From Bacteroidota bacterium (GTDB taxonomy: Bacteria > Bacteroidota > Bacteroidia > JABDFU01), in contig JACPDY010000002.1 in the NCBI GenBank assembly GCA_016183775.1, positions 16,060 through 80,059 of the forward strand: a stretch of DNA of 64,000 nucleotides, written 5' to 3'. Position numbers and translations under genes: made by a program. The notes under the pieces are model-generated. The model ran no database searches, was not told the origin of the DNA, and was given only the letters and a program-made list of their open reading frames with translations. Positions 23,119-57,864 of the stretch are shown piece after piece (positions within the stretch are counted from its first letter, which is position 1; every line of letters starts with the position of its first letter).

Positions 23119-26100
23119 CTAAGGTGTACTTAAGTTAACATTTACACTACACCCATTCTTATCTTTAATATTTATTGTGTATGTACCTGGACAAAGCTGA
23201 TTCTTGTATCTGTTAACATAACCATCGAGCCAGGAATAACTGTAAGGACTTGTACCACCCATAGCATTTACCATTATCCATTGTTTACAACCGCATCCTG
23301 TGCAGCCTGCAGTTCCTTTGACAATTTGTCCAACTACTGCGGAAGGAGAAATTATTGCAGCCATTGACATTGCGCTGCAACCTTTAGAATCAGTAATGGT
23401 TACTGAATAATTACCTGCTATAAGACCCGTTGCTGTTTGTGTTGTTTGTCCGTTACTCCAGCTGTAGGTATATGGAACTGTGCCACTACCCGGACTCGCA
23501 AGTATAGTACCATTGGAACTTCCATTACAGGTTATATTGCCAGATGAAGTGGTTAAAGTAACGGACGGATTGACTGTTACTACAGCTGTTGAAGTTGATG
23601 TATTTCCACCGGCATCTTTTATTGTTACTGTATAAGTTGTGGTTGACGCAGGACAAGGATTTATATTTTGTGTTGTTGCACTATTGCTCCAGGTATAAGT
23701 ATAAGGAGTGGTTCCGCCCGCACCGTTCGAAGTTATTGTTGCGCATGCACCCGGACACACTGAACCACCAACGGCACTTACCGTAGGAGCATTGCAATTA
23801 ACTACCACTATACTTTGGGTTACAGAATTATTACATGTTCCGTCTTTGACTGTATGAACAACACTGTAAGTTCCTGCAGTTAAAAAAGTATAAGAAAAAT
23901 TAGTGGTGGTACCGCTTACGTTTGCAGGGGCTATAGTTGAAATTAGCCAGGTATACGTTATGCCTGAACCGGGAGGAGTACCGGTATTTGTAAAATTCAC
24001 TTTAGTTCCAACACATGCCGTGGACACATTAAATGTTGCCGAAACGGGAGAGCTTCCTGTAATTGTAAAAGTCTTAGTAATGACACAACCCAAATTATCG
24101 GAAATAGTTAATGTATAACTTCCCGCAACCGCGTTTGAAAGTTCGGAACCATCTAAAATACCGATCTTGGTGCCTGTTCCTGTTTGACCTGTATTCCAGG
24201 TATAATAGTAAGGAGCGGTTCCACCGACAATGGTCGCATAAGCCCTTCCGCTTGTGGTACAACTGATATTTGCACTAGCAGTATTTACAGTTGGCGATGA
24301 TTTAGTAACTAAAACAACTGTGGTTCTTATGGTACATCCTGTATTATCTGTCACAGAACACGTATATGTACCAGGAGGAATACCCGTTGCATTTGCACCC
24401 GTCTGACCCGAAGGAGACCACAAATACGTATATGGACCTGTTCCGCCTGTAACTACCACTCCTGCAGTTCCATTTGGCGCCCCCGGACATGCCGGGTTGA
24501 TAGAAGTGGTCGTTAATGTTAGGCCTGTTGAAGTTTCTATAGCAACGGTCGTTACATTAAAACCTCCATTACATCCGTTAACATCAGTCACGGCAACCGT
24601 ATAAATACCCGGAGACAAACCTGTTGCCGTTTGCCCCGTTTGGCCAGATGGATTCCACAGGAAACTGTATGGGCCAGTTCCACCGGCTACCGAAACTGTG
24701 GCAGTTCCATTGTTACCGGCACCACAACTAAGGGGCGTTGGATTAACGCTCAAAGTTAACAGCGGCTGACAATTAACAACATTGAATTGAATTGATGCAA
24801 CAAAGCCATCACCGCAGGCAAGTACCTCGCCCGATATGCCTAATGCCACATCATATACAGTATCAGCGGTTGCGACAGATGCCACATAATTCAATGTTGA
24901 ATCGAATTTGCTCACTCCGTCATGTGTCCCAACATATACATTCCCACATCCATCGATTACTATGCCACTGTTATTACCAACACTTCCATTACTTACAGTT
25001 ACAGAAGAAATTGCAGCACCTGTATTGATGTTTCGTTTATAAATAGTTTTACCATCATAGGTCATGATAAACTTATTGTTTACAGTTATACCATTGAAGC
25101 CCTGGAAAGAGCCTGCAGCTTGTACATAATTCATACCGGCCGATTCCGCGATCAGGTAACCATTACCTACATTATAAATCGGAGCAATGGCAGGAGTTGA
25201 AGCCGCCAGAACATTTCCTGCTGCTGTTGCTACGCCAAGCCAGTCAACATGCAGACTGTAGATCCGGCCCGTAAAAGAAACCGCTAAAGACCTTAATTCA
25301 CGGCCTGTACCCGTACCCCCCACAGGCTGGATGCCTGTCACAGCACCGGTAACCGGGTTTACGCGTCCGATGCCTCCTGTTCCATCAAAATATCCTCCGA
25401 CAATTAAATTATTATAATTGCAATCGAATCCGATCCGCCAAAGTTCAGTACGGTCCCGAACCAATCCTGTGGAAGAAAAATAAACTAAATTCCCGGATGG
25501 ATCTACTTTAACAATTCCTCCCTTCCAGGCCCCGTCACACAGGTAGGTATTTCCATTTAAGTCGAGTGCAAAATCACCATAATATGATGCACCTAATTGA
25601 ACCGGAGTAAAAGTCCACAGAAGAGTGCCAGCAGAAGAATATTTCTTTAATTGATAGGGGCCCTGCCATCCGTCACCACCACCATAAATAAAGACATTCC
25701 CTGCCGCATCACGCGCAATATCATACGCCTGATTTGCAATGGTCATTGCAGGATTGGCTGTCCAGGGGTCAATGACCACTGCTTTTGACCTGTCATAGCC
25801 ATCAAGTCTGAAAGCCACGTTATTGCCATCCAAAACGGAGAATTGTGAATTGATCATCCCGCCATTTTCCGAATAATATGTTTGTGGCGCATGGTCAATT
25901 ATTGTTCCTGCCAAACCATTTATATGTATATTCCCATCTCTATCCAGGGAAACTTCTTTTGCATTACCATAGTGCATTCTGATGTCAGAAGGATCAGCTC
26001 CGGGATGCAGAATAAAAGAATATTTTATTCCTGTTGTTTTATGAAACACATACTCTACATCAATTCCCGGATAAAGATCTTTATAAGTGAGCTTCTTATA

Positions 26101-26586
26101 TCCGAAAGCCTTAACCGTTTTATTATTTTCTTTGAAACCATAAGTAAAATAATCGGCGGAAATATCTTCAGCAACAATTTTTACATCCGGATTTGCATTT
26201 AGCCAGTTCATGTCAAGGCCGTAAACTTTACCTCTTCTCTCTTTCATCTTCCCTCTTTCGGCAGCTTCTTCATTCTGATCTAAAATATTTTCTGTACTAA
26301 TTTTTTCAATACTCTCCGAAGACTCCTTCTCATACAATTTATAGGTCAACCCCTTTGATGTAAAATATGCCTCTATGCCATTACTATTTATGCCATATTT
26401 TATTTCGACTCCTTTCTCTAAACCATTTTCAAAAAACTGTCCGCTGTTCTCAATAAAAACATTGTCTTTAAAAATATCCCTTCTTATCCAATCTGATGAA
26501 TAGCTTCCAGAAACCCGGCTGAACGACTGAGCGCACAAGAATTGACCTGATAGCAAAACCAAAATGGCAAGTGTTCGTATTTTCAT
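23119..26586 (-). CDS. giant secreted SBBP beta-propeller / SprB-repeat surface protein ending in the conserved Cys-rich C-terminal module (paralog 1)
   Basis: Signal peptide MKIRTLAILVLLSGQFLCAQ. N-terminal domain (ENSGQ...HPGADP) shared with the paralogs. SBBP repeats (W-T-YGG...D.G..I..D..GN.Y..G.T.S.(D/N)FP). More than 8 SprB-type ~75-aa repeats (C-G--NG-A-V-V-GGTGPY-Y-W...G-YTV-VTD-NGC). C-terminal module CTGCGCKQWIM...NLSTP-stop. Confidence 0.75.
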   Translation of the reverse strand: MKIRTLAILVLLSGQFLCAQSFSRVSGSYSSDWIRRDIFKDNVFIENSGQFFENGLEKGVEIKYGINSNGIEAYFTSKGLTYKLYEKESSESIEKISTENILDQNEEAAERGKMKERRGKVYGLDMNWLNANPDVKIVAEDISADYFTYGFKENNKTVKAFGYKKLTYKDLYPGIDVEYVFHKTTGIKYSFILHPGADPSDIRMHYGNAKEVSLDRDGNIHINGLAGTIIDHAPQTYYSENGGMINSQFSVLDGNNVAFRLDGYDRSKAVVIDPWTANPAMTIANQAYDIARDAAGNVFIYGGGDGWQGPYQLKKYSSAGTLLWTFTPVQLGASYYGDFALDLNGNTYLCDGAWKGGIVKVDPSGNLVYFSSTGLVRDRTELWRIGFDCNYNNLIVGGYFDGTGGIGRVNPVTGAVTGIQPVGGTGTGRELRSLAVSFTGRIYSLHVDWLGVATAAGNVLAASTPAIAPIYNVGNGYLIAESAGMNYVQAAGSFQGFNGITVNNKFIMTYDGKTIYKRNINTGAAISSVTVSNGSVGNNSGIVIDGCGNVYVGTHDGVSKFDSTLNYVASVATADTVYDVALGISGEVLACGDGFVASIQFNVVNCQPLLTLSVNPTPLSCGAGNNGTATVSVAGGTGPYSFLWNPSGQTGQTATGLSPGIYTVAVTDVNGCNGGFNVTTVAIETSTGLTLTTTSINPACPGAPNGTAGVVVTGGTGPYTYLWSPSGQTGANATGIPPGTYTCSVTDNTGCTIRTTVVLVTKSSPTVNTASANISCTTSGRAYATIVGGTAPYYYTWNTGQTGTGTKIGILDGSELSNAVAGSYTLTISDNLGCVITKTFTITGSSPVSATFNVSTACVGTKVNFTNTGTPPGSGITYTWLISTIAPANVSGTTTNFSYTFLTAGTYSVVHTVKDGTCNNSVTQSIVVVNCNAPTVSAVGGSVCPGACATITSNGAGGTTPYTYTWSNSATTQNINPCPASTTTYTVTIKDAGGNTSTSTAVVTVNPSVTLTTSSGNITCNGSSNGTILASPGSGTVPYTYSWSNGQTTQTATGLIAGNYSVTITDSKGCSAMSMAAIISPSAVVGQIVKGTAGCTGCGCKQWIMVNAMGGTSPYSYSWLDGYVNRYKNQLCPGTYTINIKDKNGCSVNVNLSTP

Positions 26587-29620: not shown

Positions 29621-32440
29621 CTATGGCGTACTCAGGTTAAGATTTACACTACACCCATTCTTATCAGTAATATTTACAATATAATTACCAGGGCAAAGAT
29701 GATTCTTGTATCTGTTAACATAACCATCAGGCCAGGAATATGAGTATGGGCTTGTGCCGCCTATTGCGTTTATCATTATCCATTGTTTGCAGCCGCAACC
29801 CGCACAGTTGGATGTTCCTTTGGTAAATTGTCCGGCCAAATTACACGTAACACAAGAATTAACTGTTATATATGCAATTTTTTTCAACGAATCACAGGAG
29901 GTATATAGTTTGACATCATACGTACCTGGAGTATTGTACACTATTCCTATTGGGTTTTGAGTTGTGGACGTATTAGGTGTGCCACCCGGGAAACTCCAGG
30001 AATATGCACTTCCGGATGAATTACAAACAGGATTTATGGAAGTATAATTAACTGCCTGGCCGGCACAAAAAGATGTTTGGCTGGCATTGAAATCCAAATT
30101 ACCTGCATTACCACCGCAAGTATTGATGTTTAATTTGGCTAAAGCAATATCATAACTTCCATCGCAGGTAGTTTGATATGCTCCGGCCGTTACAGGATAA
30201 CCGCAGGCTGTCATTACCACCATGTAAACAGAACATCCATCTATTGCAATGCTGCCACCTAATACATCACCAAAGACAGATTCATTATTAGCATTATTTG
30301 TACAGGTCAGGCCCATATAACCAGAACATATCAATGTTCCATTCGGATCAAAGGTTGTTATGAATTGATCTTCTGATCCCTTAAATGTTGTTTGATAGGC
30401 ACACGACGTGACCGGAAAATCAATTGAATAGGTATCCCCCGAAACGATCACATTATTATTTGCATCACAGGCAATGCCGGTACAATTTTCGTCATTGATG
30501 GACGTTGCAGTTGCTCCTCCTCCTAAATAGGTTCCCCAAAGCCGTTGTCCAATGCTGTTGAATTTAACAACAAAAATATCGTAATCCCACCCCCCCGGAC
30601 TATTAACAAGTGTAGTTTGAAAAGCTCCCGAAGTAGCAATAGGAGAAGGAGTTCCCCCTGCAGGTGTCGAGGTCAATCCTCCTGCAACTACATTTCCAAG
30701 TCCGTCCGTTGCCACACACTGTATCATCCCGGAATAATATGTAGCCCAAAGTCGGGCACCGGTCGGATTAAATTTAAATAAATAGCCTCTGGATATTGGG
30801 GCAGTTGTAAGAAACGCTCCAGGACTTACCGGAAAATTCACACCATTAGTCCGTCCTCCTATGTATATATCTCCATTCAGATCACAAGTAATGCCACCAC
30901 AGAGTTCTCCGCACGAACTGCCAACATATGTTCCCCAAACACGGGCCCCATTTGACGCGAACTTAACAACAAAAATATCGCTTTGAAGACTGCCGCCACA
31001 AAATCCACTATTAATTGCCGGCTGAAATGAACCGCCGGTTGAAATGGCAGTTGTGGATTTGGTATTCCCGTATAAATAAACATTACTTCCATCCGTTGAA
31101 ACATCATACCCCTTGTCCTCATCAGTGCCCCCATAATAAGTTCCCCAAAGGCGGATTCCTCCGGGATCAAATTTTACAAGAAAAGCGTCATTACCGGCTA
31201 CGGCCGCATAAGTACTTTGATGAACTACATTACCTGCTGTGGCTCCTGCAATGGCATTGGTAGAAAATGTGTATCCGGAAACCAGCACATTATTTAAGTT
31301 ATCGGTAGCAATGCCTGTTCCCCATTCACAACCTGAACCTCCGTAAAAAGTGGCCCATAAACGGACACCACTGCTATTCATTTTTACAACAAACGCATCA
31401 TTCAAACAGGCACCCATTACAGTTTGATGAGCGCCCGGTGATCTGGGAAAATTGGCGGAATATGTTTGTCCTGTAAAAAGCACATTTCCCAAATTATCTG
31501 TTGTTACTGACCCTGTCATTTCAGTGTTATTGCCTCCATAATAAGTTACCCAAGGGTCAACCACTAATGCGAAGGAAGGGTTAAAAGTTGAAAATGAAAA
31601 ATGAACAATCACATCACTATTTGACAATTGTTCGAGTCTATACTCTGATTTTATGTCAATAATTTTTCCGTTTATATTCTGGTAAATTTTGGGCAACTGT
31701 TCTGTTATTTCATGGACTGAATTCTTAATTCTTAATTCTCCTCCCGGACCTGCCGAAGGATTAATTGTCAATCCACCTGTTCCACGGTATTTTAATTTAA
31801 TATCATCAGGATTTCCTCCGGGATTAATAATGATATCGTATTTCAAACCTTTTGCTCTGCTTCCACCTGCATTGAGCGAAGCCGAGCCGTAATATTTCAC
31901 ATCAATATTTTTATAAATATTCTTTACTGTTACTTCATTGTAGGAATTAACACGGGTTATGCCTTGCGGGCATTGACTGAGATAGTAATTTGTATAGCCC
32001 TCAATCCTTTCGGCTGTTTCGGTACGGGCATTTAAATTGGCATTTACAAAGTCAATATCTATACGGTGTAATTTAATAATTTGTTTTTCATACAAGGCTT
32101 GTTTAAACTCCTGCTCTTCCTCTTCAGTAATCAGCCCGGTTTGTTCCTTTGCTTCAGCTTGCTCATCAATTTCATGCATTATTTCATTTGCATTACTTAA
32201 CACAAAGCTGAAGCCTGCTTTTCGTATGTATACATCCGCCCCGGCGGTCTCCCCTCTGAATAAAACATCAGAACAAAAATGTTGTTCCATATCAGCAATC
32301 TGACCTTTGTTCTCTGTAAAAAAAAGATCATTCCCTTTAAGAGATTGCGCATTCGTGTGGCTAACGAAAAAAACAACAGCGGCAAGGGGTATTAAGCAGA
32401 TGCTTCTGTTTATTTGTTTTATGTGGAGTTGTGGTATCAT
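29621..32440 (-). CDS. giant secreted SBBP beta-propeller surface protein with PKD-like domain and conserved Cys-rich C-terminal module (paralog 3)
   Basis: Probable start at Met 32440 (MIPQLHIKQINRSICLIPLAAVVFFVSHTNAQ signal). N-terminal domain ENKGQ...NPGGNPDDI, SBBP repeats, PKD-like segment, C-terminal module ...NLNLSTP-stop. The ORF can be extended to 32539, but that extension is a relic of another C-terminal module. Confidence 0.7.
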   Translation of the reverse strand: MIPQLHIKQINRSICLIPLAAVVFFVSHTNAQSLKGNDLFFTENKGQIADMEQHFCSDVLFRGETAGADVYIRKAGFSFVLSNANEIMHEIDEQAEAKEQTGLITEEEEQEFKQALYEKQIIKLHRIDIDFVNANLNARTETAERIEGYTNYYLSQCPQGITRVNSYNEVTVKNIYKNIDVKYYGSASLNAGGSRAKGLKYDIIINPGGNPDDIKLKYRGTGGLTINPSAGPGGELRIKNSVHEITEQLPKIYQNINGKIIDIKSEYRLEQLSNSDVIVHFSFSTFNPSFALVVDPWVTYYGGNNTEMTGSVTTDNLGNVLFTGQTYSANFPRSPGAHQTVMGACLNDAFVVKMNSSGVRLWATFYGGSGCEWGTGIATDNLNNVLVSGYTFSTNAIAGATAGNVVHQSTYAAVAGNDAFLVKFDPGGIRLWGTYYGGTDEDKGYDVSTDGSNVYLYGNTKSTTAISTGGSFQPAINSGFCGGSLQSDIFVVKFASNGARVWGTYVGSSCGELCGGITCDLNGDIYIGGRTNGVNFPVSPGAFLTTAPISRGYLFKFNPTGARLWATYYSGMIQCVATDGLGNVVAGGLTSTPAGGTPSPIATSGAFQTTLVNSPGGWDYDIFVVKFNSIGQRLWGTYLGGGATATSINDENCTGIACDANNNVIVSGDTYSIDFPVTSCAYQTTFKGSEDQFITTFDPNGTLICSGYMGLTCTNNANNESVFGDVLGGSIAIDGCSVYMVVMTACGYPVTAGAYQTTCDGSYDIALAKLNINTCGGNAGNLDFNASQTSFCAGQAVNYTSINPVCNSSGSAYSWSFPGGTPNTSTTQNPIGIVYNTPGTYDVKLYTSCDSLKKIAYITVNSCVTCNLAGQFTKGTSNCAGCGCKQWIMINAIGGTSPYSYSWPDGYVNRYKNHLCPGNYIVNITDKNGCSVNLNLSTP

Positions 32441-32845
32441 GTAATCAGGCAAAATTTTGCAAATCAAATATTGTGGTATACTCAGGTTCAGATTCACACT
32501 GGTCAGAAAACTTAGGCCCGCCAGCTTTGACGTCACCAATGGCCTGAGAAAAAAGTGTACCTGAAAAAAATATCTGAAAAAAGAGATTTAAACAAAATGC
32601 GCAATGAACAAATCCGTTTTTGAACCTTAATAAATTTTTCACTTTGCCCATTTTTTAAAGGTATTATGATGCGATACGGAATCAAAAACATATATTTACA
32701 AATATAGTTTGTTTGAAAATACAAAAATGCATTTAACATATTAGTTATCAATAACTTAAATAAACATTTAATAATGTTAGTAAATTTAAATTAAGGAAGG
32801 GTTTAAGCCAAATAAATACAGGGTTATTGAATTCTATTTTTTTTT

Positions 32846-32931
32846 GCCACCAAAACACGAAAGCACAAAACCTGCCTGCCTGCCGGCAGGTTTCACCAAA
32901 CGCATTTCGTGGGGTTTAGTGTTTTGGTGGC
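32846..32931. promoter_or_regulatory. nested palindromic element in the divergent intergenic region
   Basis: gccaccaaaacac (32846-32858) ... gtgttttggtggc (32919-32931), a 13-bp perfect IR flanking the inner palindrome cctgcctgccggcagg; additional ttggtggcaaaa half-site; between the divergent starts at 32440 (-) and 33055 (+). Confidence 0.45.
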
Positions 32932-33054
32932 TTGGTGGCAAAATTTATTGCTTTTATAACGTTATACCAATTTGATTTTAATTTAAGCCCAATCAATACT
33001 GGTATAATGCCGATGTGATTAGAATTTAACAACCCTGATAAATACACAAGATTC

Positions 33055-34611
33055 ATGAAAACAAATTCTTCCGAACTATTTGACACGATCAAATCTCTAA
33101 GCACACAGGAGAAAAAACGAATCAGAAAAGAAATGTCTCAAAATAACAAAGACAAAAAAACACTATTATTATATGATCTTATCGACAAACAAAAAAAATT
33201 TGACGATGCCGCTATTCAAAAAAAACTGGGTCATCCTAAATGGTACCCGCAGCTAAAAAAATATTTACTTGAACGTCTTACCGATAAAATATTCAGCGGA
33301 AATCCCGATAAAAAAAACTACACTTATGTGCTCAGGTTAATAACCATTGCCGAACAATTTTACGCGAAAGGATTGTTTAAACAGTCACAAAAGAAATTTG
33401 AACAAGCCGCCGACACCTGCAAAAAAAACGACTGGCTGGAATATATCCCGATCATCAATGCCAGGCTTAGCAATATTATAGGCACTAAACACGAGCAAAG
33501 AAAAAATTACATTTTTTATACAGAAGCCTACCAGGCTTTAAATCAATCCTATTTGGAAAAAAAATACTCGCTCTTGTTTCGCTGTTTGGAATTCTCAAAC
33601 AAAACAATGCAATCAAAACAACTTATAAACAATCTGAATATAAATGAATGCTTATCTGATGAAACGCGCCTGACTACCCTGCTTCAAAAACTGCATTACT
33701 ACCAATTTTTAGCTTCCTATTATAAAAACATTGAAATCAATCATAGCCAAAGCTATTTCTATTGCAAAAAATATCTCGATGTTGTAGTGAAAAAAAATCA
33801 GGAAGATGAAAATAAAAATGCGGCTTCCGAAAGCCAGAAAACTTCGCGCGAAAGAAATAATATTGTAGGCTTGCTTAATGTAATCGTCGCGGCAATTAAT
33901 GCAAATTTATTTGAAGATTTAAATGCCCTGTATCTATCATTCCTTGACCTGAAAAATAAGTTCAACATAAAGGATGATCACAGTCTGGCTCTCCTGTTCG
34001 AGGAAAGCCGTTTAATTCTTTACCTGTTAATTTCCACTTCTAATATCACAAGACGAGGATTGGAACATCCGGATTTCGATTTCTATCTCAGGCAATTTTA
34101 TCATAATGAAAATAAACTACCCCGGCCAACATCAACATCCTGCAATGAACTCATCGCTTTCACCTTCTTTATGAAAAAAAAATGGGCCGATTGCACCGCT
34201 TCAATTAATAAAATAGTAAATGACAACGAGATCTACAAAATTTATTCAGAAACATACGCTAACATACTTCTTCTCCGGCTATTCGTGAATTACGAAACAG
34301 GGGATCTTGATATCCTGGATTTCAACCTGAAGAAAACGGAACGATATTTCGGGAAGCGCTATTGGGCTTTGCCATACGAAAATCTGATATTGTCATTTTT
34401 CAACGAAATAACAATCAACGGTCAGGCTGCTCACTTCAACATATTGAAGAAATACAAGAGCCATCTGGATCACTTACTATTAACTGACAGATCATTCGCA
34501 GCAACGTATTTAGCTGAAAGAATATTTATTGATTTCGGCTGTTGGCTCGATTCCAGGATCACCAATAAGCCACTTAGAGATGTGTTAAAAGAAAAATGGA
34601 ATAAGAATTGA
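33055..34611 (+). CDS. ~517-aa family protein A (AT-rich, Lys-rich, predicted cytoplasmic alpha-helical); function unknown
   Basis: No signal peptide; MKTNSSELFDTIKSLSTQEKKRIRKEMS N-terminus shared with paralogs at 46514 and 53230; stop is 6 bp from the stop of the convergent giant gene 34618..37404. Confidence 0.6.
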   Translation: MKTNSSELFDTIKSLSTQEKKRIRKEMSQNNKDKKTLLLYDLIDKQKKFDDAAIQKKLGHPKWYPQLKKYLLERLTDKIFSGNPDKKNYTYVLRLITIAEQFYAKGLFKQSQKKFEQAADTCKKNDWLEYIPIINARLSNIIGTKHEQRKNYIFYTEAYQALNQSYLEKKYSLLFRCLEFSNKTMQSKQLINNLNINECLSDETRLTTLLQKLHYYQFLASYYKNIEINHSQSYFYCKKYLDVVVKKNQEDENKNAASESQKTSRERNNIVGLLNVIVAAINANLFEDLNALYLSFLDLKNKFNIKDDHSLALLFEESRLILYLLISTSNITRRGLEHPDFDFYLRQFYHNENKLPRPTSTSCNELIAFTFFMKKKWADCTASINKIVNDNEIYKIYSETYANILLLRLFVNYETGDLDILDFNLKKTERYFGKRYWALPYENLILSFFNEITINGQAAHFNILKKYKSHLDHLLLTDRSFAATYLAERIFIDFGCWLDSRITNKPLRDVLKEKWNKN

Positions 34612-42048: not shown

Positions 42049-42079
42049 AATTAGTTTCCTGTTGTTTTTTATTAAAAAT

Positions 42080-42751
42080 TTATTTGTTGATGATAATTTT
42101 TTTTGCCTCAAGTATGTATTCGGGACAGATAGATAGCGGGATTAATTGAATAAAATAAATTCCGGTTTGTTGGTTGCTTAAATCAAGCCCTGTTTTTTCT
42201 CCGATAATTTTAGTTTTAAAAATAATTTGTCCCAGAACATCCGTAATAATCACATTACTATTTTGTTCTGCTCCCTCAATAATGAATGTTCCTGTGCCTG
42301 GGGTGGGGTAAATAGTAAATTCTGTAATTCTATTGCAACTAACCGCCACTAAATTAAAATAGTTATACTGCCCGTTAAAGTCGGTTTGTTTTAAACGGTA
42401 GTACGAAGTTCCATTCAATGGTTCATTATGGGCAAAAGTATAAGACATGGTTTGGCTGCTGTTGCCAGTACCATCAATGATGCCAATAATTTCAAAGTTA
42501 ACACCATCTATAGTTCGTTCAATGGTAAAATAATCGTTATTTATTTCTGATGCCGTTGCCCACATTAAATTTACTTTTCGGTTATTGCATTTCGCTTCAA
42601 ACGAAAGTAACCCAATTGGTAAAGGCACTTCACTACCCACAGAGCCAACACAACTAAACGAAAAGCCATCATCGTTTCCTACCGAATAAATTTGGGAAAA
42701 GGTATTTGAAAAACATCCCATTAATACAAAAAACAATAGATTTACTCTCAT
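42080..42751 (-). CDS. small secreted protein with fn3-like domain and T9SS type-A C-terminal sorting domain
   Basis: Signal peptide MRVNLLFFVLMGCFSNTFSQ (start 42751); C-terminus ...TEFTIYPTPGTGTFIIE...ITDVLGQII...GIYFIQL = Por_Secre_tail; internal LPIGLLSFEAK...NNDYFTIERT...YYRLKQTD domain shared with 51139..53045. Confidence 0.65.
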   Translation of the reverse strand: MRVNLLFFVLMGCFSNTFSQIYSVGNDDGFSFSCVGSVGSEVPLPIGLLSFEAKCNNRKVNLMWATASEINNDYFTIERTIDGVNFEIIGIIDGTGNSSQTMSYTFAHNEPLNGTSYYRLKQTDFNGQYNYFNLVAVSCNRITEFTIYPTPGTGTFIIEGAEQNSNVIITDVLGQIIFKTKIIGEKTGLDLSNQQTGIYFIQLIPLSICPEYILEAKKIIINK

Positions 42752-42789
42752 GATTTTAATTGGTTGATAAATAATAAAAACAACCCCGG

Positions 42790-44541: not shown

Positions 44542-44562
44542 GATGTTAGGATTTTTATTTAG
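44371..44562. repeat. 192-bp direct repeat, copy B (provides start codon and RBS for the FGE-like gene)
   Basis: About 93% identical to 41857..42048. Confidence 0.8.
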
Positions 44563-45702: not shown

Positions 45703-46323
45703 TTACTCATAATACCCTTTAATACCAAATCGCCGGGCCATTTTTTTCACCTCTAACATCATCGGCGCGATGTAATTTCCTATATGCTCATTGTATTTTA
45801 TTTCGCCTACCAGTATCGCTCCCAAGCGTTCCATTGTTGGCTGCAGTTTATAATTTACCGGAAAAAACGCGTAATCTACCTTGCGATCATTACCTACTTT
45901 AAGCGCTTCTTTTATCAGGGAATATAAAAGTTTTACGCTGCAATTTGGCTTATTTATGGCCAACATACCTACACCCGCAAATCTGCCCTGAAGCTTGGAA
46001 CGTAATTTTTTATACTCTTCATGATACTGATCGCAGGGCAATTCCTGTCCGGGATTTTCAATGATTGTTGTACGTATTGTTCCGATGTATTTTTCACCAT
46101 TACTTGCCAGCAAGTTCACTGTTCCTTTATGTGTATCGAACTTGTCGTTTAACTTTTCATCCGAAAAATTTGCCTTATTAAATTTTTTATCATCCTCAAC
46201 AAATACTTTATACCGTAACCGATAAACTACATCTAACTGATGTGTTGTTACCGCCTCCTGAACTCTGTAGTTTGGCACATTAGGGTTTGCGGCTATTAGT
46301 GCTTCTTGTTCTTCTGTTTTCAT
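45703..46323 (-). CDS. GNAT-fold acyltransferase, N-acyl amino acid synthase / autoinducer-synthase-like
   Basis: YRLRYKVFVEDD motif typical of LuxI/FeeM/exosortase-associated NAS families; ~200 aa; first gene of the co-directional operon. Confidence 0.4.
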   Translation of the reverse strand: MKTEEQEALIAANPNVPNYRVQEAVTTHQLDVVYRLRYKVFVEDDKKFNKANFSDEKLNDKFDTHKGTVNLLASNGEKYIGTIRTTIIENPGQELPCDQYHEEYKKLRSKLQGRFAGVGMLAINKPNCSVKLLYSLIKEALKVGNDRKVDYAFFPVNYKLQPTMERLGAILVGEIKYNEHIGNYIAPMMLEVKKMARRFGIKGYYE

Positions 46324-46513: not shown

Positions 46514-48070
46514 GTGAAAACCTACTCTTCCGAATTGCACGATCTTGTAAAATCTCTTAGCACGCAGGAGAAAAAGCGTATCAGGAAAGAAATGTCCCTT
46601 ACTAACAAGAATAAAAAAATAGTACTGCTATATGATATTATTGATAAACAAAATTTTTTTGATGAAGCTTTAATTCAAAAAAAATTAGGAAACCCCAAAT
46701 GGTATCCGGGTCTCAAAAAATACTTGCTCGAATACCTCACGGATAAAATATATTGCGGTAATTCCGATAAGAAAAGCAAAACCTATTTACTTAAATTAAT
46801 AACCATCGCAGAACAGTTTCACACAAAAGGATTAATTAAAGCGACCAAAAAAAAATTGATCCAGGCATTGGATCTATGCAAAGAAAATAGTTGGATAGAA
46901 TATGCGCCCATTATTAATTCTAAACTGGATAATATTATCGGAGAAAAAGCAGAGCAAAGGAAAAGTTACACTTTTTATACGGAGTCTTACCGGGCGTTAA
47001 ATCAGGCGTATTTAGAAAAAAAATATTCCATTTTATTCCGTTGCTTGGAGCATTCGGATAAGACAATACAGGCACCGGAATTTATGGCCGGCTTAAGCAT
47101 CGATGAATGTTTATCCGACGAAAAGCACCTGACAACTTTTCATCAGAAATTACACTATTATCAATTTTTAAGTGCATATTATAGACACATCGAACTAAAT
47201 TATTCTCAAAGTTATTTTTACGCTAAAAAAAGCATGGAAGTAATTCTTAAAAAAAATAAGGAAGAGGAAAATATGGAACCCTTCTCTCAGACACAACAAA
47301 ATGCCAGGGAAAGAAGTAATATGGTACAAATCTATAACCTGATCGCAGGTGCAATAAACGCAAATTTTCTTGATGATCTTTATACCCTCTTTAAATCTTA
47401 CGTTTTACTTCGAAGAAAGTTTAATATACGAAAGGGCCATATTCTTCATAAACTATACAATGAACTTTATCAATCTCTTTGTTTCCTTATTTCAGCTGTA
47501 AATATTACAAGGAGAGGGGTTGAGTCCCCGGATTTTCATTCCCACCTTCATCAATTTTATCTGATCGAAAAAAAATTACCTTACAACATATTAGTTGTTT
47601 GCAATGAAATGATATCCTTTTATTTTTTTATGAAAAGAGACTGGAATAATTGCACTTCCACCATTAACAAAATATTAAATGACAATGAGTTATACAAAAT
47701 TTATCCTGAAACATATGCCAATATGCTGCTTCTCCGGTTATTTGTAAATTATGAAACGGATGATCTGGATGTTCTAGATTATAACTTAAAAAGAACAGAG
47801 CGATATTTCGAAAAACATTATTCCGCACTGGGGTATGAAAAAATAGTCATAGCATTCTTTAATGAAATCGTCAATGATTTTTCAGGCAGAATAAAAACGA
47901 TGCAAAAATACATGGACAAAATAAATGAACTACTTTTAAATGATAGAAATTTTTCTTTTACCTATTTAACTGAAAAAATATTTATTGATTTTAAATGCTG
48001 GCTGGATTCAAAAATCACCAACAGGATGTTCACAGAGATTTTAAAAGAAAAAAAAAGAAATAAGAATTGA
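46514..48070 (+). CDS. ~517-aa family protein B (paralog of 33055..34611)
   Basis: MKTYSSELHDLVKSLSTQEKKRIRKEMS...; collinear similarity over the full length; stop is 8 bp from the stop of the convergent giant gene 48079..51138. Confidence 0.6.
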   Translation: MKTYSSELHDLVKSLSTQEKKRIRKEMSLTNKNKKIVLLYDIIDKQNFFDEALIQKKLGNPKWYPGLKKYLLEYLTDKIYCGNSDKKSKTYLLKLITIAEQFHTKGLIKATKKKLIQALDLCKENSWIEYAPIINSKLDNIIGEKAEQRKSYTFYTESYRALNQAYLEKKYSILFRCLEHSDKTIQAPEFMAGLSIDECLSDEKHLTTFHQKLHYYQFLSAYYRHIELNYSQSYFYAKKSMEVILKKNKEEENMEPFSQTQQNARERSNMVQIYNLIAGAINANFLDDLYTLFKSYVLLRRKFNIRKGHILHKLYNELYQSLCFLISAVNITRRGVESPDFHSHLHQFYLIEKKLPYNILVVCNEMISFYFFMKRDWNNCTSTINKILNDNELYKIYPETYANMLLLRLFVNYETDDLDVLDYNLKRTERYFEKHYSALGYEKIVIAFFNEIVNDFSGRIKTMQKYMDKINELLLNDRNFSFTYLTEKIFIDFKCWLDSKITNRMFTEILKEKKRNKN

Positions 48071-51138: not shown

Positions 51139-53045
51139 GCATTATTTATTGACGATCAATTTTTGTTTATAAATAGAGTTATCGGATGTTGCGGAAATAA
51201 TATAAACACCGGGTGAAAGTGTATTGGAAGGATCAATCGCTACAATATTTTCACTATGTTTCTCTAATACAATTATTTTTGATAAAATCTCCGCTAATTA
51301 TGTTTTCCATCATAGTCAGTTTGCTTCAGCCGGTAGTAATTTATTCCTTTTAGCGGCTTCGAATCAATTAATTCATATTCCAATTTTGTTGTATTGTTAC
51401 CGGCGCCCTTTATTGTTTGCACTAAGTCGTAATTTGAACCATTCCCCGAACGCTCAACGGTAAAATAATCATTATTAGTTTCTGTGGCTGTTGACCAGTT
51501 GAGTTTTACAAATGACTTTTCAGATACCGCGGTAAATCCAAGTAATTCAATTGGAAGCCAATTTACCTGTGAGATTGAAGCAAGGGCAAATGGACTAAAA
51601 CTTGTAACCGCGGCACTTGAAACAACTGTACCGGAAGTGGTGCTGCCGGTTGTGCCGCCATTACCATAATCCTGCCACTTTGTTCCGTCCCACTTTGCAA
51701 CAGTAAGGTCAGTCAATGAAGCTACATTACATAACGGCAGCGCTATTGTGTTCCAGGATAAAGTAACCGTCGCATCGCCAGACCCGGACGCTTGATCTCG
51801 GTTTAAAATCCAATATTCACACTGACTTATGTTATCTATTGTACTCACTTTAGAATAATGTGAGTACATAGGGTGAGAATCTGCATTATAGTATTCAGTC
51901 ATAAACTCAAGACCATTTCCACAACACGTGTTAGAAATAGAAATAGCGATTGGACGATAATAACTTCCCTTTCCAACCGGAAATGTAAATGGATCGGTTC
52001 CTATTTTAGAACAAGCTCCGGAAATAAAACTGTTATTGTTTGCCCCTGATACCATCACGCCACTACCAAACTTAAGAATATTGACAGGACTGGTTATAGG
52101 ATCGGTTATAAGAATACCTTTAACAAACGTAAGTGTTTGACCAAAATAATTTAACAAACAACCGGATAACAAAGTGATGTTGTTTCCCGTCTTATTGATC
52201 GTTATATTTCCATCAAAAAGACCGGCAGCACCGGTCAGATCAAAATTTTGATTATTACCGCCTGCAAAAATTAACTCCCCTGTACCCCCATCAAAACCGG
52301 AGCCGACTGTTACAGTGCCCCTTGCTTCAATCTTAGCATTAGATACTCCATTCGTGTAAGAAAGATCATTGGAAACATCAATAGTATCACCTACAGCAGT
52401 AGCTATTATGGTGAAAGCGCCGCAGGTTCCTGTAGCATTAATGGTAAAGTTATAAAAGCTTGTAGATGTTAACAGGTCAATAGTAAATGTACGGGTCGCG
52501 CAGGGAGAGCTTCCGGGATTAAGGGTAAGTGTACCATTGTTATGATTAAATGTGCCGGCACTATGAGTAAATAACGTTGGGCTGGTGGTCCATGTTCCAC
52601 CAATAGAAAAAATTCCGGATGTACCAGTAAAATTCCCCCCTGACAAAGTAAACGTCCCTACATTAATAGTAATGGCAGAAGAGCCTCCTGTAAACGCACC
52701 ACTTGATACACTAAAATTCGAACTTCCAACGGTAATGGTATTCGTGCCTTGTGAAACAGTGCCGGTATATCCGGCTATTGAAAAGCCCGCTACATTAACC
52801 GCAGCATCAATACTACAATTGCCATTTTTGGTTCCTGCGCCGCCATCAAAAATAGCAATATCACCCGACCCCGGAACCGATGCACCTCCCGCTCCATTTG
52901 AACTGGCAGACCAGTTAGCTGTATTGTTCCAGCTGGAGGCTCCCACTGATACCCAGTATCGGTTAGCGGAAAAACAACAGGAAAGTAACAGAAAAGAAAG
53001 AAACATAATTAAAAGTAACGTCAAATGTGATTTTTGGGATGTCAT
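51139..53045 (-). pseudogene. T9SS type-A cargo protein, apparently frameshifted between passenger and C-terminal sorting domain
   Basis: Main ORF 51294..53045 ends ...YRLKQTDYDGKHN-stop. A -1 frame continues AEILSKIIVLEKHSENIVAIDPSNTLSPGVYIISATSDNSIYKQKLIVNK-stop, a classic T9SS C-terminal domain, ending at 51139. One extra A in the AA run at ~51296-51298 would fuse them. The intact paralog 42080..42751 has the same fn3-like domain in frame with its C-terminal domain. Confidence 0.55.
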
Positions 53046-53229: not shown

Positions 53230-54780
53230 TTGAAAAAAAATTATCTGTTTACATTAATAAAATCTCTAAATATGTCGGAAAAGAGATATATAAAACTGTC
53301 ATTAAGGAAAAATGCAATTGGGGATAGCAGCAATTATCTTACACTCTTTGATATGATCGCTGCTCAAATAGAATATGATGAAAAAGCCATCAAAAGAGAT
53401 TTGGTAAATTATTCTTTGAAGAAGAATTTTGCCGTGACTAAGCTTTATCTATATCATTTGATTTTACGCACACTCAAAAATTTTCACTTTGAAACCTCTA
53501 CAGACATGTTGTTGGCAGATAAAATACAACAGGCTAATCTTTTACTTGATAAAGAATTATTCGATCAATGTGAAAATATTACTCTTAAAGCCTTATCAAT
53601 TGCTAACAAACACGAACTTAAGCTTAAGACCATTGAACTTTTGGATATTGAATTACGAGCACTTCAAGGACAACTGCAAATCAAAAAAATAAAAGAAAAG
53701 GCAGAGAAGTACTATAGAATGAAGCAAAAATTATGGGAACAGCAAGAACAGATATTTTACCTGCAAAAAATTGCGTATAATAATTTCGTCCAATTGAAAA
53801 CAGAATGGGTGACAGAACTAGAACAAAAAACCATTTTCAAGTCACCGAGTCAAATAAAAGAAGGAGATTTACTTTCCATACATGCTAAAATATTATATCA
53901 CCACGTCTGGAGCGGCTATTTATTCTCCGTAAATAAATCTGAAAAAACTTTCAAACATTTGATGAAGCTGGATATGTTATTTGACAAAAACCCGCATCTG
54001 ATCGGAGATTATTGTAATTTATACATTTCTATGCTAAACAATCTTAATGTTGTTTTATTGGGGCGTAATGATTTCAAGAGAGTTCTTCTTAACATAGAGA
54101 AAATGAAACTATTGAAAATGCGCTCTGTAGAAGGTCGAATACGTGTGCGCGAACGCCTGGTTAGTGCTGAAATGAGTTTGCATAAGCATACCGGAGAATT
54201 TGAGAATTCCCTGCCATTAGTGAATGAGGCAAACAAGTTGCTTGAAAACAAAAAACTGAGTGAGGTATATCGGATGGTATTTAATTTACACTTGTTTATT
54301 TACTATTTTGCGTTTGAGGAATACAAAACAGCACTTAGGTTTTTGAATCATTTCCTATCCGGATCAAGAAAAAATATTCGTAAAGATTTACATAAAACGG
54401 CACGCTTACTTTATATGATTACGCATTACAAACTTCGTAATTTTGATTATCTTGAATCATTCTTAAAAAACGCAGTACGATCTTTCAACAGCAATGAGGG
54501 CATGGATAAAATGGAAAGACTATTCCTTTCATTCTTCACTAATATTATTTTGATTACTAAAGAGGATGAAAGGCGATCACATTTTTTGACATTTAAATTA
54601 GCCCTCGAAAAACTTGAAAAGCAAAAAATAATGCTTGCAACGTATTTTTATAATTTCAATTTTTCTGATTGGGCAGAGGCAGAAATGACTAATAGAAAAT
54701 ACAAAGAATTTGTTTATGAAAAATTTCATCCGGACGCGTTGGCAAAATATACAAAACAGTTTAAAGCCCGAATAAATTAA
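53230..54780 (+). CDS. ~517-aa family protein C (divergent paralog of 33055 and 46514)
   Basis: LFTLIKSLNMSEKRYIKLSL... aligns with LFDTIKSLSTQEKKRIRKEMS; same length (516 aa), same AT-rich composition, convergent with giant gene 54844..57864 (63 bp apart). Confidence 0.5.
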   Translation: MKKNYLFTLIKSLNMSEKRYIKLSLRKNAIGDSSNYLTLFDMIAAQIEYDEKAIKRDLVNYSLKKNFAVTKLYLYHLILRTLKNFHFETSTDMLLADKIQQANLLLDKELFDQCENITLKALSIANKHELKLKTIELLDIELRALQGQLQIKKIKEKAEKYYRMKQKLWEQQEQIFYLQKIAYNNFVQLKTEWVTELEQKTIFKSPSQIKEGDLLSIHAKILYHHVWSGYLFSVNKSEKTFKHLMKLDMLFDKNPHLIGDYCNLYISMLNNLNVVLLGRNDFKRVLLNIEKMKLLKMRSVEGRIRVRERLVSAEMSLHKHTGEFENSLPLVNEANKLLENKKLSEVYRMVFNLHLFIYYFAFEEYKTALRFLNHFLSGSRKNIRKDLHKTARLLYMITHYKLRNFDYLESFLKNAVRSFNSNEGMDKMERLFLSFFTNIILITKEDERRSHFLTFKLALEKLEKQKIMLATYFYNFNFSDWAEAEMTNRKYKEFVYEKFHPDALAKYTKQFKARIN

Positions 54781-57800: not shown

Positions 57801-57864
57801 AATTACCTGCGGCAAATAAATTTCCCGATATAAAAACGACTGTAATGATAAAACTTTGCCTCAT
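54844..57864 (-). CDS. giant secreted SBBP beta-propeller / SprB-repeat surface protein with conserved Cys-rich C-terminal module (paralog 6)
   Basis: Signal peptide MRQSFIITVVFISGNLFAAG; N-terminal domain KNNGQ...KPGGNPDQI; ~8 SBBP repeats; SprB-type repeat; C-terminus ...CAGCGCKEWIM...NLTVP-stop. Confidence 0.75.
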   Translation of the reverse strand: MRQSFIITVVFISGNLFAAGNFEKSARTTTAHPGGHEAERGNGLCFTKNNGQIIDMGGNLCPEVLYKGNAGEAQIYLRKTGLSYVLGDLGEIMHEADEREEEIERNNRNDEQNNQAAVRNVKQERIANQKLNFHRVDVDFINCNRDPEIYERDQLEGYSNYYYPHCPQGILKVNSYNEVIIKNIYNNIDLKYYGAKGQACQPEGTPARRQGLKYDIIVKPGGNPDQIKLKYSGADEVEIKDGELRIKNSIAEMTEVLPKVYQNINGKIIDVKTEYRLEYLSNNEVIVHFLFSIFNSSFPLVVDPWITYYGGSDVEQGQGIDTDNNGNIVITGATSSFDFPVTAGAFQVVQKSFSNAFVVKFNNAGNRLWATYYGGTFGEEGRGICVDKSGSNEISITGITYSTDFPVTAGAFQGVSGGGTSDAFVVKFNPAGARLWATFYGGSSGDYGVGVVADIGGNIAITGCTESTNFPVTGGAFQLTKAGLWDAFVVKFNSAGNRLWATYYGGTADEYMYNAISTDSSGNFIITGQTKSANFPVSAGAFQLALNGIKEDAYIVKFNPAGGRLWATYYGGSDFDFGQSVTTDNIGNVIVSGLTYSPDLPVTAGAFQIIRKGASDAFIIKFDPAGNRLWSTYYGGTAGREEGNGVITDGNNDIYLGGDTYSSDMPIGTCAFQSVFGGKEDLFFAHFDPNGQFICSTYVGGNSVQDDETLPGNCIAIYKNTVFLLGYAFPVFPVTPGAFQTTNAGSYDLVIASLCASMCGSPTVGTIAFTNNNGFCPNSAQNFNGSYTTSCSGAVPVYSWTFAGGTPNFSAQQNPSGIIYAVAGTYAVKLVVDDGCNKDSLTENIVVNSCACSLSAQSTVLSNPACSVGTGSVSVTISNGSGPYTYSWSTGVSAISTFATYQFNGITAGSYTITVTDAGSCISTVTAVIISPSALAGQFVKGTANCAGCGCKEWIMTTATGGTTPYTYTWSDGYINRYKNQLCPGNYTINIKDKNGCGINVNLTVP

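Follow-up and report, generated by a model that had tools for sequence, protein, structure and literature searches.

Gene content of the locus

The window analysed here, a stretch of 64,000 nucleotides from a Bacteroidota metagenome-assembled genome (MAG), contains seven large ORFs of 553-1155 aa (the giants, G1-G7), all on the minus strand and at exactly the coordinates originally predicted. Major features are summarized in Table 1. The flanking genes are icd and uvrD, as had been proposed (PF00180; PF00580/PF13361); a frameshift near 59490-59540, where a three-frame translation switches frame, divides uvrD into two ORFs. The original prediction was also right about the spacers between giants (27, 28 and 5 bp), the Sec-type signal peptides (present by eye in 7/7), the N-terminal domain common to six of the seven, which is Pfam DUF7948 (PF25778; E 1e-48 to 5e-55), and the C-terminal module common to all seven. 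SBBP repeats are present in five of the seven (G2, G3, G4, G6 and G7) with about 6-8 blades, not the 8-10 claimed; the motif occurs in 5-7 copies per gene with a period of about 65 aa. No SBBP repeats were found in G1 and G5, and the N-terminal domain of G5 has no Pfam match.

Table 1. Coordinates of the genes and elements in the window.
Feature	Position	Strand	Assignment and evidence
icd	21713..22942	+	NADP isocitrate dehydrogenase, left flank; PF00180, E 1e-69; best relatives 90% identical
G1, 1155 aa	23119..26586	-	signal peptide, DUF7948, non-SBBP propeller-like region, SprB repeats (5 Pfam stretches), PKD, terminal module 23122-23331
G2, 992 aa	26614..29592	-	signal peptide, DUF7948, ~7 SBBP blades, 2 SprB repeats, terminal module 26617-26826
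G3	29621..32440	-	signal peptide, DUF7948, SBBP, PKD, terminal module 29624-29833
Palindromic element, 102 nt	32842..32943		strongly structured; in G3/R1 divergent intergenic region
R1	33055..34611	+	RusR/BT2802-like all-helical TPR protein; NF058569 E 4.6e-17, below curated cut-off; divergent from G3-G2-G1
G4, 928 aa	34618..37404	-	signal peptide, DUF7948, ~7 SBBP blades, PKD, terminal module 34621-34830
G5, 553 aa	37410..39071	-	signal peptide, unrelated N-terminal domain, PKD, terminal module 37413-37622
Thioester-reductase-domain SDR protein	39167..40321	-	PF07993 E 6e-46; TIGR01746 E 4e-37
Fatty-acid AMP/CoA ligase, FadD11-like	40312..42111	-	PF00501 E 1e-55; NF038343 E 7e-62; probable start 42027
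Small protein with T9SS type A CTD	42080..42817	-	PF18962 E 9e-9; TIGR04183 E 7e-10, above curated cut-off
FGE-sulfatase-like protein	42790..44541	-	PF03781 E 6e-11
WbuX-like PP-loop amidotransferase	44555..45661	-	TIGR03573 E 1e-28, below curated cut-off
FeeM-like N-acyl amino acid synthase	45703..46323	-	PF21926 E 2e-16
R2	46514..48070	+	RusR/BT2802-like TPR protein; NF058569 E 6.5e-17; divergent from FeeM...G5-G4 string
G6, 1019 aa	48079..51138	-	signal peptide, DUF7948, ~8 SBBP blades, SprB repeat, terminal module 48082-48291
X583	51143..53045	-	secreted protein with T9SS type A CTD, which continues in other frame past stop at 51294
R3 (HYU69_00525)	53230..54780	+	RusR/BT2802-like TPR protein; NF058569 E 4e-35, full length, below curated cut-off; divergent from X583-G6
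G7 (HYU69_00530), 1006 aa	54844..57864	-	signal peptide, DUF7948, SBBP, PKD, SprB, terminal module 54847-55056
uvrD	58025..60435	+	right flank; PF00580/PF13361 on both ORFs
G8, cut by window end	63031..64000	-	terminal module 63034-63243

The description of the locus as a 35-kb array holds for the seven paralogous giants, but about 13.7 of the 34.7 kb (~40%) belongs to other genes: three paralogous plus-strand genes for ~517-aa proteins (R1-R3), a six-gene block (39167-46323) and a 583-aa gene (51294-53045). Nor is the locus bounded by uvrD, since an eighth family member with the same terminal module, G8, lies beyond uvrD/GT22/TauE. Nine family members that were checked carry accessions of one block (MBI22688xx-MBI22717xx) and are each on a different contig of the MAG, a lower bound that places the family on at least nine contigs. 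These data support a paralogous expansion of Sec-exported multidomain proteins.

Most of the giants follow a common plan, in the order signal peptide, DUF7948, a beta-propeller that is usually of the SBBP type, a stalk of Ig-like PKD and/or SprB repeats, and the invariant module. G4 is identical to NCBI MBI2268809.1. The start of G3 is probably at 32440, from which NCBI calls a protein of 939 aa; the mechanical ORF extends to 32539 (972 aa). The C-terminus of G3 is the same as that of P0226 (939 aa), and the homologous locus L081 encodes proteins of 1152 and 1300 aa with the architecture of G1. The propellers are homologous to those of the SBBP proteins CylK (PDB 7FH6; E 1e-31 with G4) and Leptospira LipL53 (NF047494; E 1e-22 to 3e-32), and may bind ligands. 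However, CylK is cytoplasmic, acts as a biosynthetic enzyme and has another N-domain, the LipL53 proteins are lipoproteins, and both are devoid of DUF7948 and the terminal module.

The genes within 39167-46323 are predicted to include a small block for the biosynthesis of acyl lipids. The 5' end of the ligase gene is duplicated as the first ~57 codons of the FGE-sulfatase-like gene, and a direct repeat of 195 bp (41854-42048 and 44368-44562) is 95% identical. The frame-0 tail of X583 (...SPGVYIISATSDNSIYKQKLIVNK) gives a partial PF18962 match (E 0.0027), and X583 is 47% identical over 87 aa to the small 245-aa type A protein of the window; the break in its CTD is a frameshift or an assembly error.

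The terminal module and type IX secretion signals

The terminal module consists of 70 residues, is Cys-rich with five invariant cysteines (CxxCGCKxW...LCPG...GC) and ends in an invariant proline. All copies, 8/8 in the window and 69/69 in homologs, sit at the extreme C-terminus, at most 3 residues from the stop. The module is a diverged, specialised SprB repeat: it is homologous to internal SprB repeats (hhalign probability 98.9%, E 2.7e-17), and its profile finds 48,831 SprB-repeat proteins. AF2 models it as a beta-sandwich of the Ig-like kind (pLDDT 86.5). It is nonetheless a sharply distinct subtype: the module HMM gives terminal modules 98-151 bits versus at most 41 bits for 239 internal SprB repeats, among which no internal module was found. 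The SprB (PF13573) gliding-motility adhesins of Flavobacterium johnsoniae are likewise Bacteroidota surface proteins with SprB repeats, which the giants have in the module and in several internal copies. [quoted passage not shown]

Between paralogs the module is 61-87% identical, compared with 22-44% for whole proteins (BLASTP) and 26-56% for the DUF7948 and body regions (global alignment). Identical module residues use the same codon at only 40-71% of positions, so the conservation is due to purifying selection and not to recent gene conversion.

[quoted passage not shown] Like the giants, cargo of type A (PF18962/TIGR04183), B (PF13585/TIGR04131) and C (ChiA-like) has a Sec signal peptide, a large passenger of several domains that include propeller and Ig-like repeats, and a beta-sandwich domain of about 70-100 residues at the extreme C-terminus. 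Homologs with the passenger architecture of the giants carry a type A or B CTD exactly at the position of the module. Among the 120 best homologs of G4, the C-terminal end is the module in 69, type A in 38, type B in 7 and none or partial in 6, and none of the 120 carries two of these ends. The unrelated passenger of G5 shows the same alternation, with the module in the window, a type A Por_Secre_tail in L003 and a type B CHU_C in L009. Two unrelated passenger families thus show mutual exclusivity of the module and the type A/B CTDs. Type A CTDs are present in two proteins of the window, besides the frameshifted one in X583, directly upstream of G6; P0204, a type B paralog, shares its NCBI label with the proteins of the window.

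Because it occupies the position of the T9SS signal in related proteins, the module may be a new export or anchoring signal. We regard it as a candidate sorting or anchoring domain of the T9SS type, with the T9SS as the putative route. A specialised SprB repeat would have taken over the position and role of the T9SS CTD, and would be the tag by which an outer-membrane export or anchoring machinery recognises the whole protein family. Such a role would explain why the module barely changes whereas the passenger parts diverge and are exchanged. The reading as a whole, repeated cassettes of a TPR regulator and surface giants tagged by the module for export or anchoring, has in our estimate a probability of about 0.5.

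Since the module is derived from a passenger repeat, another reading is a conserved end domain that serves the passenger itself: it could form an adhesive tip, mediate oligomerisation or disulfide cross-linking, or cap an Ig-like stalk, in a protein that is exported by another signal or is periplasmic. The odd number of invariant cysteines would allow a disulfide between molecules or the binding of a metal. None of the T9SS CTD models of types A, B and C matches the module; a fold search with its AF2 model returned generic Ig-like matches only, all weaker than E 1e-3, and the 50 matches listed include no T9SS CTD. Type B cargo typically has an adjacent PorP/SprF, but none adjoins the giants, and neither a PorP/SprF-like gene nor any other dedicated partner is a regular neighbour of the cassettes in the window and homologous loci. 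An end domain would not, however, be expected to exclude type A/B CTDs strictly in 114 homologs and a second passenger family, and the module is never internal. It would also leave the module proteins without an export signal, although the same architecture otherwise ends in a T9SS CTD (none or partial in only 6/120). We consider this explanation possible but the less probable of the two.

The TPR proteins and the repeated cassette

R1-R3 score 62-122 bits against NF058569, far below the family cut-off of 550, and are therefore distant relatives of the RusR/BT2802 family. R1 and R2 are 62% identical and their upstream regions about 61% identical. The AF2 model of R3 is a TPR superhelix (pLDDT 85.8), in agreement with TPR profile matches (E 3e-6). 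Among the folds that match it best are those of RapI, NprR, the pLS20 Rap regulator and MalT domain III (E 5.6e-4 to 1e-2, TM 0.36-0.57). The superhelix is shared with RRNPP-type regulators (Rap, NprR) and the MalT sensor domain, but these matches are weak and sequence profiles detected no HTH or other DNA-binding domain in the 517-aa proteins, R3 included, so that this is a resemblance and not membership.

RusR (BT2802), a candidate activator of the ribose utilisation locus of Bacteroides thetaiotaomicron, is similar to R1-R3 in having about 500 residues, an all-helical structure and no Pfam family, and in the position of its gene at the edge of a locus, which for RusR is the locus it controls. 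Upon deletion of rusR, about 10% of the induction of the adjacent locus remains (bioRxiv 10.1101/574913). We found no demonstrated DNA binding for members of the RusR/BT2802 family in the literature. The target of RusR is a sugar utilisation locus, whereas R1-R3 adjoin surface proteins and a lipid-type biosynthetic block. Members of the R family elsewhere adjoin unrelated operons, as local regulators do. The RusR/BT2802-like TPR protein is probably a ligand-sensing positive regulator, and the 517-aa proteins would be transcription activators of their adjacent genes.

Each cassette pairs a gene for a RusR/BT2802-like TPR protein with one or several divergently transcribed genes whose products are Sec-exported, multidomain surface proteins. 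It is conserved in other metagenomes: the divergent layout of R gene and giants recurs in L081, L098/L099 (twice), L100/L101 and L102/L103. The locus in the window would be one of many such cassette loci in the MAG.

Base composition and history of the region

The original prediction attributed the contrast between GC-balanced giants and AT-rich 517-aa genes and spacers to a mosaic origin. The raw values stand (0.39-0.45 in giants, 0.31-0.35 in 517-aa genes, 0.14-0.30 in spacers), but a mosaic origin does not follow from them. At four-fold degenerate sites the contrast is reversed, with a GC of 0.36 in the giants and 0.41 in the 517-aa genes. The difference sits in codon positions 1 and 2, where it reflects the contrast between Gly/Ala/Thr-rich giants and Lys/Leu/Asn/Ile-rich helical proteins.

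A horizontally acquired, compositionally mosaic island inserted between adjacent icd and uvrD would account for housekeeping genes on both sides, and there is a serine recombinase as well as a tRNA 20 kb left of the region. Four-fold-site GC, at 0.36-0.41 throughout the region, is also below that of the housekeeping flanks (0.46-0.48), which we take as a mild signature of accessory or low-expression genes. However, besides the reversal at synonymous sites, uvrD lies within 10 kb of icd in 0/80 nearest genomes (closest icd 90% identical), leaving an insertion of mosaic origin unsupported. The region is not bordered by an integrase, a transposase or terminal repeats, and the eighth member beyond uvrD and the spread over at least nine contigs also argue against an island, which is very improbable. 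Of the proposed accessory insertion or expansion, what remains is expansion with domain shuffling.

The suspected shuffling was confirmed by comparing N-terminal domains with C-terminal modules: DUF7948 identity tracks body identity (r = 0.87) and not module identity (r = -0.34). A 710-bp DNA similarity (34141-34837 versus 47600-48298) indicates that the 3' end of a regulator gene and the module of the convergent giant were duplicated as one unit, and an orphan 30-residue module fragment is found in an intergenic region of L098. The locus thus has a recombinational history. Together with the many divergent paralogs per genome, this could suggest a surface-variation system, in which modules and regulator genes supply the homology for recombination events that change the displayed propeller variant by reshuffling or switching. 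We consider such a system unlikely, if somewhat less so than the island. DNA identity between modules is only 68-86% and synonymous sites have diverged, so any module exchange is old and not ongoing; neither invertible-promoter repeats nor a site-specific recombinase were found in the region; and a regulator for each cassette points to regulated rather than stochastic expression.

The palindromic element, for which no Rfam family was found, is absent from the homologous R2 intergenic region and has been inserted into that between G3 and R1. It contains an inverted repeat of 31 nt (84% complementary), with a folding energy of -53 kcal/mol (z = -6.6).

The giant genes

The interval between icd and uvrD contains seven large ORFs (G1-G7), all on the minus strand, and an ORF check recovers both this arrangement and the spacers of 27, 28 and 5 bp that the original prediction had described. 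The flanking genes are likewise as described. The interval is not an array of giant genes alone, since about 40% of it is taken up by other genes. G8, an eighth member that shares the C-terminus, is clipped by the window end and is separated from the other giants by uvrD, the gene of a GT22-family membrane glycosyltransferase and that of a TauE permease. Positions of these and other features are listed in the table.

Positions of features in the window and, for L098, in a metagenomic comparison locus
Feature	Position	Strand	Description
Serine recombinase gene	808-2499		Large; 3' end overlaps tRNA gene
tRNA gene	2396-2480		On the strand opposite to the recombinase gene
Type A CTD protein	13915-14853		Left flank
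Interval of G1-G7	23119-57864	-	Seven giant genes
Palindrome	32842-32943		102 nt, imperfect; upstream of R1
R1	33055-34611	+	~517-aa RusR-like TPR gene; divergent from G3-G2-G1
G4	34618-37404	-	Giant gene
Biosynthetic block	39167-46323		Inside the array
Direct repeat, two copies	41854-42048 / 44368-44562		195 bp, 95% identical
R2	46514-48070	+	~517-aa RusR-like TPR gene; divergent from biosynthetic block, then G5-G4
X583/G6 spacer	51143-51293		Apparent 155-bp spacer
R3	53230-54780	+	~517-aa RusR-like TPR gene; divergent from X583-G6
uvrD	58025-60435		Two ORFs, overlapping near 59490-59540
G8	63031-64000		Eighth giant gene
Orphan module fragment	L098 8032-8121		Intergenic, beside a RusR-like gene
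Second RusR-like gene	L098 14611-16153		Two ORFs (307 + 197 aa)

All seven giants begin with a hydrophobic Sec-type leader with AQ/AE/AA-type sites at its end, as judged by eye, in agreement with the predicted Sec secretion. The N-terminal domain reported to be common to six of them is DUF7948 (PF25778), which Pfam matches over its full length in G1-G4, G6 and G7 at 165-187 bits (gathering cut-off 27) and does not find in G5. The SBBP repeats (PF06739) stood in five of the seven giants, with repeated Pfam matches of 45-120 bits in G2, G3, G4, G6 and G7 (cut-off 20.5) and none in G1 or G5. The blade number of 8-10 did not stand: motif counting finds 5-7 WxTYYGG units per SBBP giant with a period of ~65 residues, which corresponds to roughly 6-8 blades. 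SprB and/or PKD repeats were detected by Pfam in all seven, as expected. Among solved structures, only that of CylK, a Friedel-Crafts alkylating enzyme (PDB 7FH6/7RON), is homologous to the SBBP propeller; it matches residues 358-605 of G4 at an E value of 1e-31. Because of this homology, the propellers may have a catalytic instead of a purely adhesive role. A polymorphic-toxin architecture was rejected, since such toxins vary at the C-terminus and keep the body constant, the opposite of what the giants show. Sorting of the lipoprotein or exosortase type was rejected as well, there being neither a lipobox nor a C-terminal transmembrane helix by eye.

The terminal module and the T9SS signals

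The last 70 residues form a terminal module that aligns without gaps across all eight giants, with the consensus GQFxKGTxxCxxCGCKxWIM...GGTxPYxYxWPDGYxxRYKNxLCPGxYxINIKDKNGCSxNVNLxxP. Within the window 37 of its columns are invariant, and over 53 sequences 14 are, including five cysteines and the final proline. Paralogs are 61-87% identical in the module, compared with 22-44% over whole proteins (BLASTP) and 26-56% in the DUF7948 and body regions (global alignment). This similarity is kept by selection on the protein, as the same codon is used at only 40-71% of the identical module residues; recent gene conversion was rejected because synonymous codons differ.

Comparison with internal SprB repeats (hhalign probability 98.9%, E 2.7e-17), together with partial PF13573 matches on the module, identifies it as a diverged SprB repeat. 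It forms a sharply separate and strictly terminal subtype: a module HMM scores terminal modules at 98-151 bits and 239 internal repeats at no more than 41 bits, and no internal module copy was found among the scored repeats and homologs. An AF2 model of the module is an Ig-like beta-sandwich (pLDDT 86.5) with generic fold matches only. An exhaustive search with the module HMM returned 48,831 SprB-repeat proteins. SprB giants with many repeats dominate this outcome, as the score of a protein adds up over its repeats, so that the search confirms the SprB homology and is uninformative on the distribution of the subtype. A word-indexed search with the module consensus returned three fragments only and missed the module-bearing giants of locus L081, and so undercounts. 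When metagenomes were scanned with two module peptide patterns, one true module was recovered (L082), the other 15 loci being ordinary SprB repeats.

[quoted passage not shown] The type A CTD (PF18962/TIGR04183) has no match in the seven giants at E <= 0.01 in Pfam or E <= 0.1 in NCBIfam, and hhalign of the module against type A tails is negative (probability 9.9%); the same models match two other proteins of the window, so the test works here. The type B CTD (PF13585/TIGR04131) is also without a match in the seven giants in Pfam and NCBIfam (hhalign probability 0.2%). The NCBIfam scan gave no T9SS sorting-domain match to the giants, in a library copy whose content of the ChiA-like type C model (cl41395) is unconfirmed. 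A cognate gene of the PorP/SprF family usually clusters with a type B cargo gene (PMC10202324). This family has no match among the ORFs of at least 150 aa scanned in 23-58 kb and is absent from the gene tables of the comparison loci L081, L098 and L100-L103.

The module and the T9SS signals alternate at the C-terminus. Among the 120 best homologs of G4, all of which are DUF7948/SBBP proteins, 69 end in the terminal module, 38 in a Por_Secre_tail (type A) and 7 in CHU_C (type B), while the remaining 6 have no ending or are partial; none carries two endings together. The type A homologs cover only ~75-80% of G4, the CTD replacing its PKD/module end. G5, whose N-terminal domain is unrelated to that of the other giants, has homologs that end in type A (L003) or type B (L009). 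By this alternation, the module takes the place of a T9SS signal in each of two passenger families that are independent of one another. Signals from more than one unrelated family, namely types A, B and C, are known to be accepted by the T9SS (PMC10202324). Of the traits expected of T9SS cargo in general, the giants show Sec signal peptides and a strictly terminal conserved domain; a T9SS in the same genome is inferred only from cargo of types A and B in the window and in the metagenome-assembled genome (MAG).

From its position, conservation and exclusivity, we propose that the module may be a tag for export or anchoring that is specific to this protein family, with the T9SS as the likeliest route. 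In its fullest form this reading, to which we give a probability of roughly 0.4, holds that the module would be a fourth, new class of C-terminal signal by which the T9SS sorts or anchors its cargo. Such a signal would descend from a passenger repeat of SprB type, an uncultured clade of Bacteroidota would use it for dozens of surface proteins in each genome, and every set of these would be activated by its own RusR-like TPR regulator. If the module is truly an export or anchoring signal, it would add a new signal class, demonstrate the recruitment of a passenger repeat to signalling duty, and predict a matching lineage-specific shuttle or anchor protein. Should it be no more than an end domain, the locus is a surface-protein expansion that is large but otherwise ordinary for the Bacteroidota. 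A strictly terminal, highly conserved SprB-derived module in place of a T9SS CTD is unusual and apparently undescribed; no publication on a terminal signal derived from SprB, or on DUF7948, came up in our literature search. Genome-wide prediction of T9SS cargo relies on CTD models, to which module-tagged proteins are currently invisible, and in NCBI such proteins are named only "SBBP repeat-containing", "PKD domain-containing" or "hypothetical".

RusR-like TPR genes and their cassettes

The three ~517-aa genes R1-R3 are paralogous (R1 and R2 are 62% identical, R3 is distant) and belong to no Pfam family. Against NF058569, the BT2802 family, R3 scores 121.8 bits over its full length (E 4e-35), R1 62.2 and R2 61.7, where the curated cut-off is 550; by these scores they are homologous to BT2802, yet fall short of membership in the curated family. 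BT2802, also named RusR, is a candidate activator for the ribose locus of Bacteroides thetaiotaomicron, and its deletion abolishes growth on ribose and leaves ~10% of the induction (bioRxiv 10.1101/574913; PMC8121099). The AF2 model of R3 (pLDDT 85.8) is an all-helical TPR superhelix, with TPR motifs confirmed by sequence profiles, and its best PDB fold matches, all weak, include RapI, NprR, the pLS20 Rap regulator and domain III of MalT. RRNPP regulators combine an N-terminal HTH with a TPR peptide-binding domain, whereas the R proteins have the TPR part and no match to an HTH family, nor was any other DNA-binding domain identified in them. The most conserved part of the R family is the four-helix region in its N-terminal ~60 residues.

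The layout in which an R gene is divergent from giant genes is seen in 8 cassettes in total, including four independent metagenomic places (L081; L098/L099, with two cassettes; L100/L101; L102/L103), where the giants carry DUF7948 and the same terminal module. G7 is without an R gene of its own, and the DNA upstream of G8 falls beyond the window. Distant members of the R family adjoin unrelated operons, for instance one with acetyl-CoA synthetases in Crocinitomix and, in a MAG of the Cyclobacteriaceae, one with genes for branched-chain amino acids, so the family would behave like local regulators, unlike a secretion accessory. That cargo genes are systematically paired with RusR-like TPR proteins is unusual and apparently undescribed. 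The cassette layout would also place the RusR family, itself poorly understood, in a second regulatory setting, one that is not tied to carbohydrates and recurs many times in each genome. In L098, a second RusR-like gene, divergent from two giants, is split into two ORFs.

A sigma-70 promoter scan of the R1 intergenic region gave sites no more often than chance, with a consensus that is unsuited to Bacteroidota, and a search for a shared operator revealed only that the upstream regions of R1 and R2 are paralogous. Upstream of R1 lies an imperfect palindrome that is unique in the window and folds at -53 kcal/mol (z = -6.6). It matches no Rfam family, is absent from the paralogous R2 upstream region, and could be a small inserted element, a structured RNA or a terminator.

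The genes divergent from R2 are, in order, those for an FeeM-like acyltransferase (N-acyl amino acid synthase), a WbuX-like amidotransferase, an FGE-like protein, a small type A CTD protein, a FadD11-like fatty-acid ligase and a thioester reductase, followed by G5-G4. This biosynthetic block is grouped with G5 and G4 under R2, and its product may be an acylated amino acid or lipid. Inside it, the FGE-like gene and the gene of the type A CTD protein (245 aa) lie between the two copies of a direct repeat that duplicates the 5' end of the ligase gene. This arrangement suggests that a ~2.5-kb segment was inserted into the block or duplicated within it. X583, a 583-aa gene, is apparently a frameshifted type A cargo gene abutting G6, because the other frame of the spacer between the two encodes a type A CTD tail (...SPGVYIISATSDNSIYKQKLIVNK) up to the G6 start.

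Origin of the array

Across the paralogs, identity in DUF7948 tracks identity in the body (r = 0.87), not in the module (r = -0.34). Modules resemble those of neighbours, G1-G2-G3 being 80-86% identical and G4-G6 87%. The likeness of G4 to G6 is accounted for by a 710-bp DNA similarity in which the R1 3' end and the G4 module match the R2 3' end and the G6 module; the upstream regions of R1 and R2 are ~61% identical. From these two similarities, the duplicated unit comprised the promoter region, the R gene and the neighbouring gene's module, with one breakpoint inside the giant gene. The decoupled identities and the duplicated unit bear out the domain shuffling that was to be sought by comparing the N-terminal domain with the module, and its mechanism was old segmental duplication, not foreign DNA. 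The expansion foreseen for the locus is thus upheld, with shuffling; as such, the array is a surface-protein expansion of a sort that is ordinary among Bacteroidota. In L098, an orphan fragment with only the last 30 module residues (87% identical) looks like the remnant of a rearrangement at the module boundary.

The original prediction had also read GC-balanced giants among strongly AT-rich ~517-aa genes and spacers as suggesting a mosaic origin, and the housekeeping flanks icd and uvrD as pointing to an accessory insertion or expansion. The raw contrast is real, with a GC content of 0.39-0.45 in the giants and 0.31-0.35 in the 517-aa genes; at four-fold degenerate sites it is reversed. It reflects amino-acid content, as the difference sits in codon position 2 (0.45-0.51 versus 0.23-0.27). 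Pooled four-fold-site GC is 0.36 in the giants, 0.41 in the 517-aa genes, 0.40 in the biosynthetic block and 0.46-0.48 in the housekeeping flanks; the giants are therefore the most AT-rich gene set at neutral sites, and GC throughout the region is slightly below that of the core flanks. Among the flank genes, GC at four-fold sites is lowest (0.28) in the one for the type A CTD protein on the left side, and low synonymous GC may be a general trait of secreted accessory genes in this genome, not of the array locus.

The window is one of many such loci instead of a single island. G4 is identical to NCBI MBI2268809.1 from a Bacteroidetes/Bacteroidota bacterium MAG with HYU69 locus tags, on a contig of 90,049 nt; nine family members checked lie on nine different contigs within one accession block (MBI22688xx-MBI22717xx), and ~25 of the 120 best G4 homologs carry the label of this MAG. 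In the nearest genomes of the species-level collection, which are 84-90% identical in icd, some keep the upstream pair of M16 peptidase and icd, uvrD never lies within 10 kb of icd, and what follows icd downstream varies with the genome. With relatives at this distance the comparison is low-powered and cannot show an insertion, and nothing supports icd-uvrD adjacency as an ancestral junction. The mosaic insertion is thus not borne out, given the amino-acid effect on composition, the many contigs and the lack of such a junction in relatives. The description of the array given by the original prediction is for the most part correct.

The split of uvrD, where the conserved ...ENIQELLNG... continues in another frame and the second ORF has a Glu/Lys/Arg-rich low-complexity stretch, marks a true pseudogene or else stems from an error in the assembly of the MAG. 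For X583 as for uvrD, the frameshift may be such an assembly error and should not be over-read. About 20 kb to the left of the array, the overlap of the serine recombinase gene with the tRNA gene may mark the edge of an integrated element.
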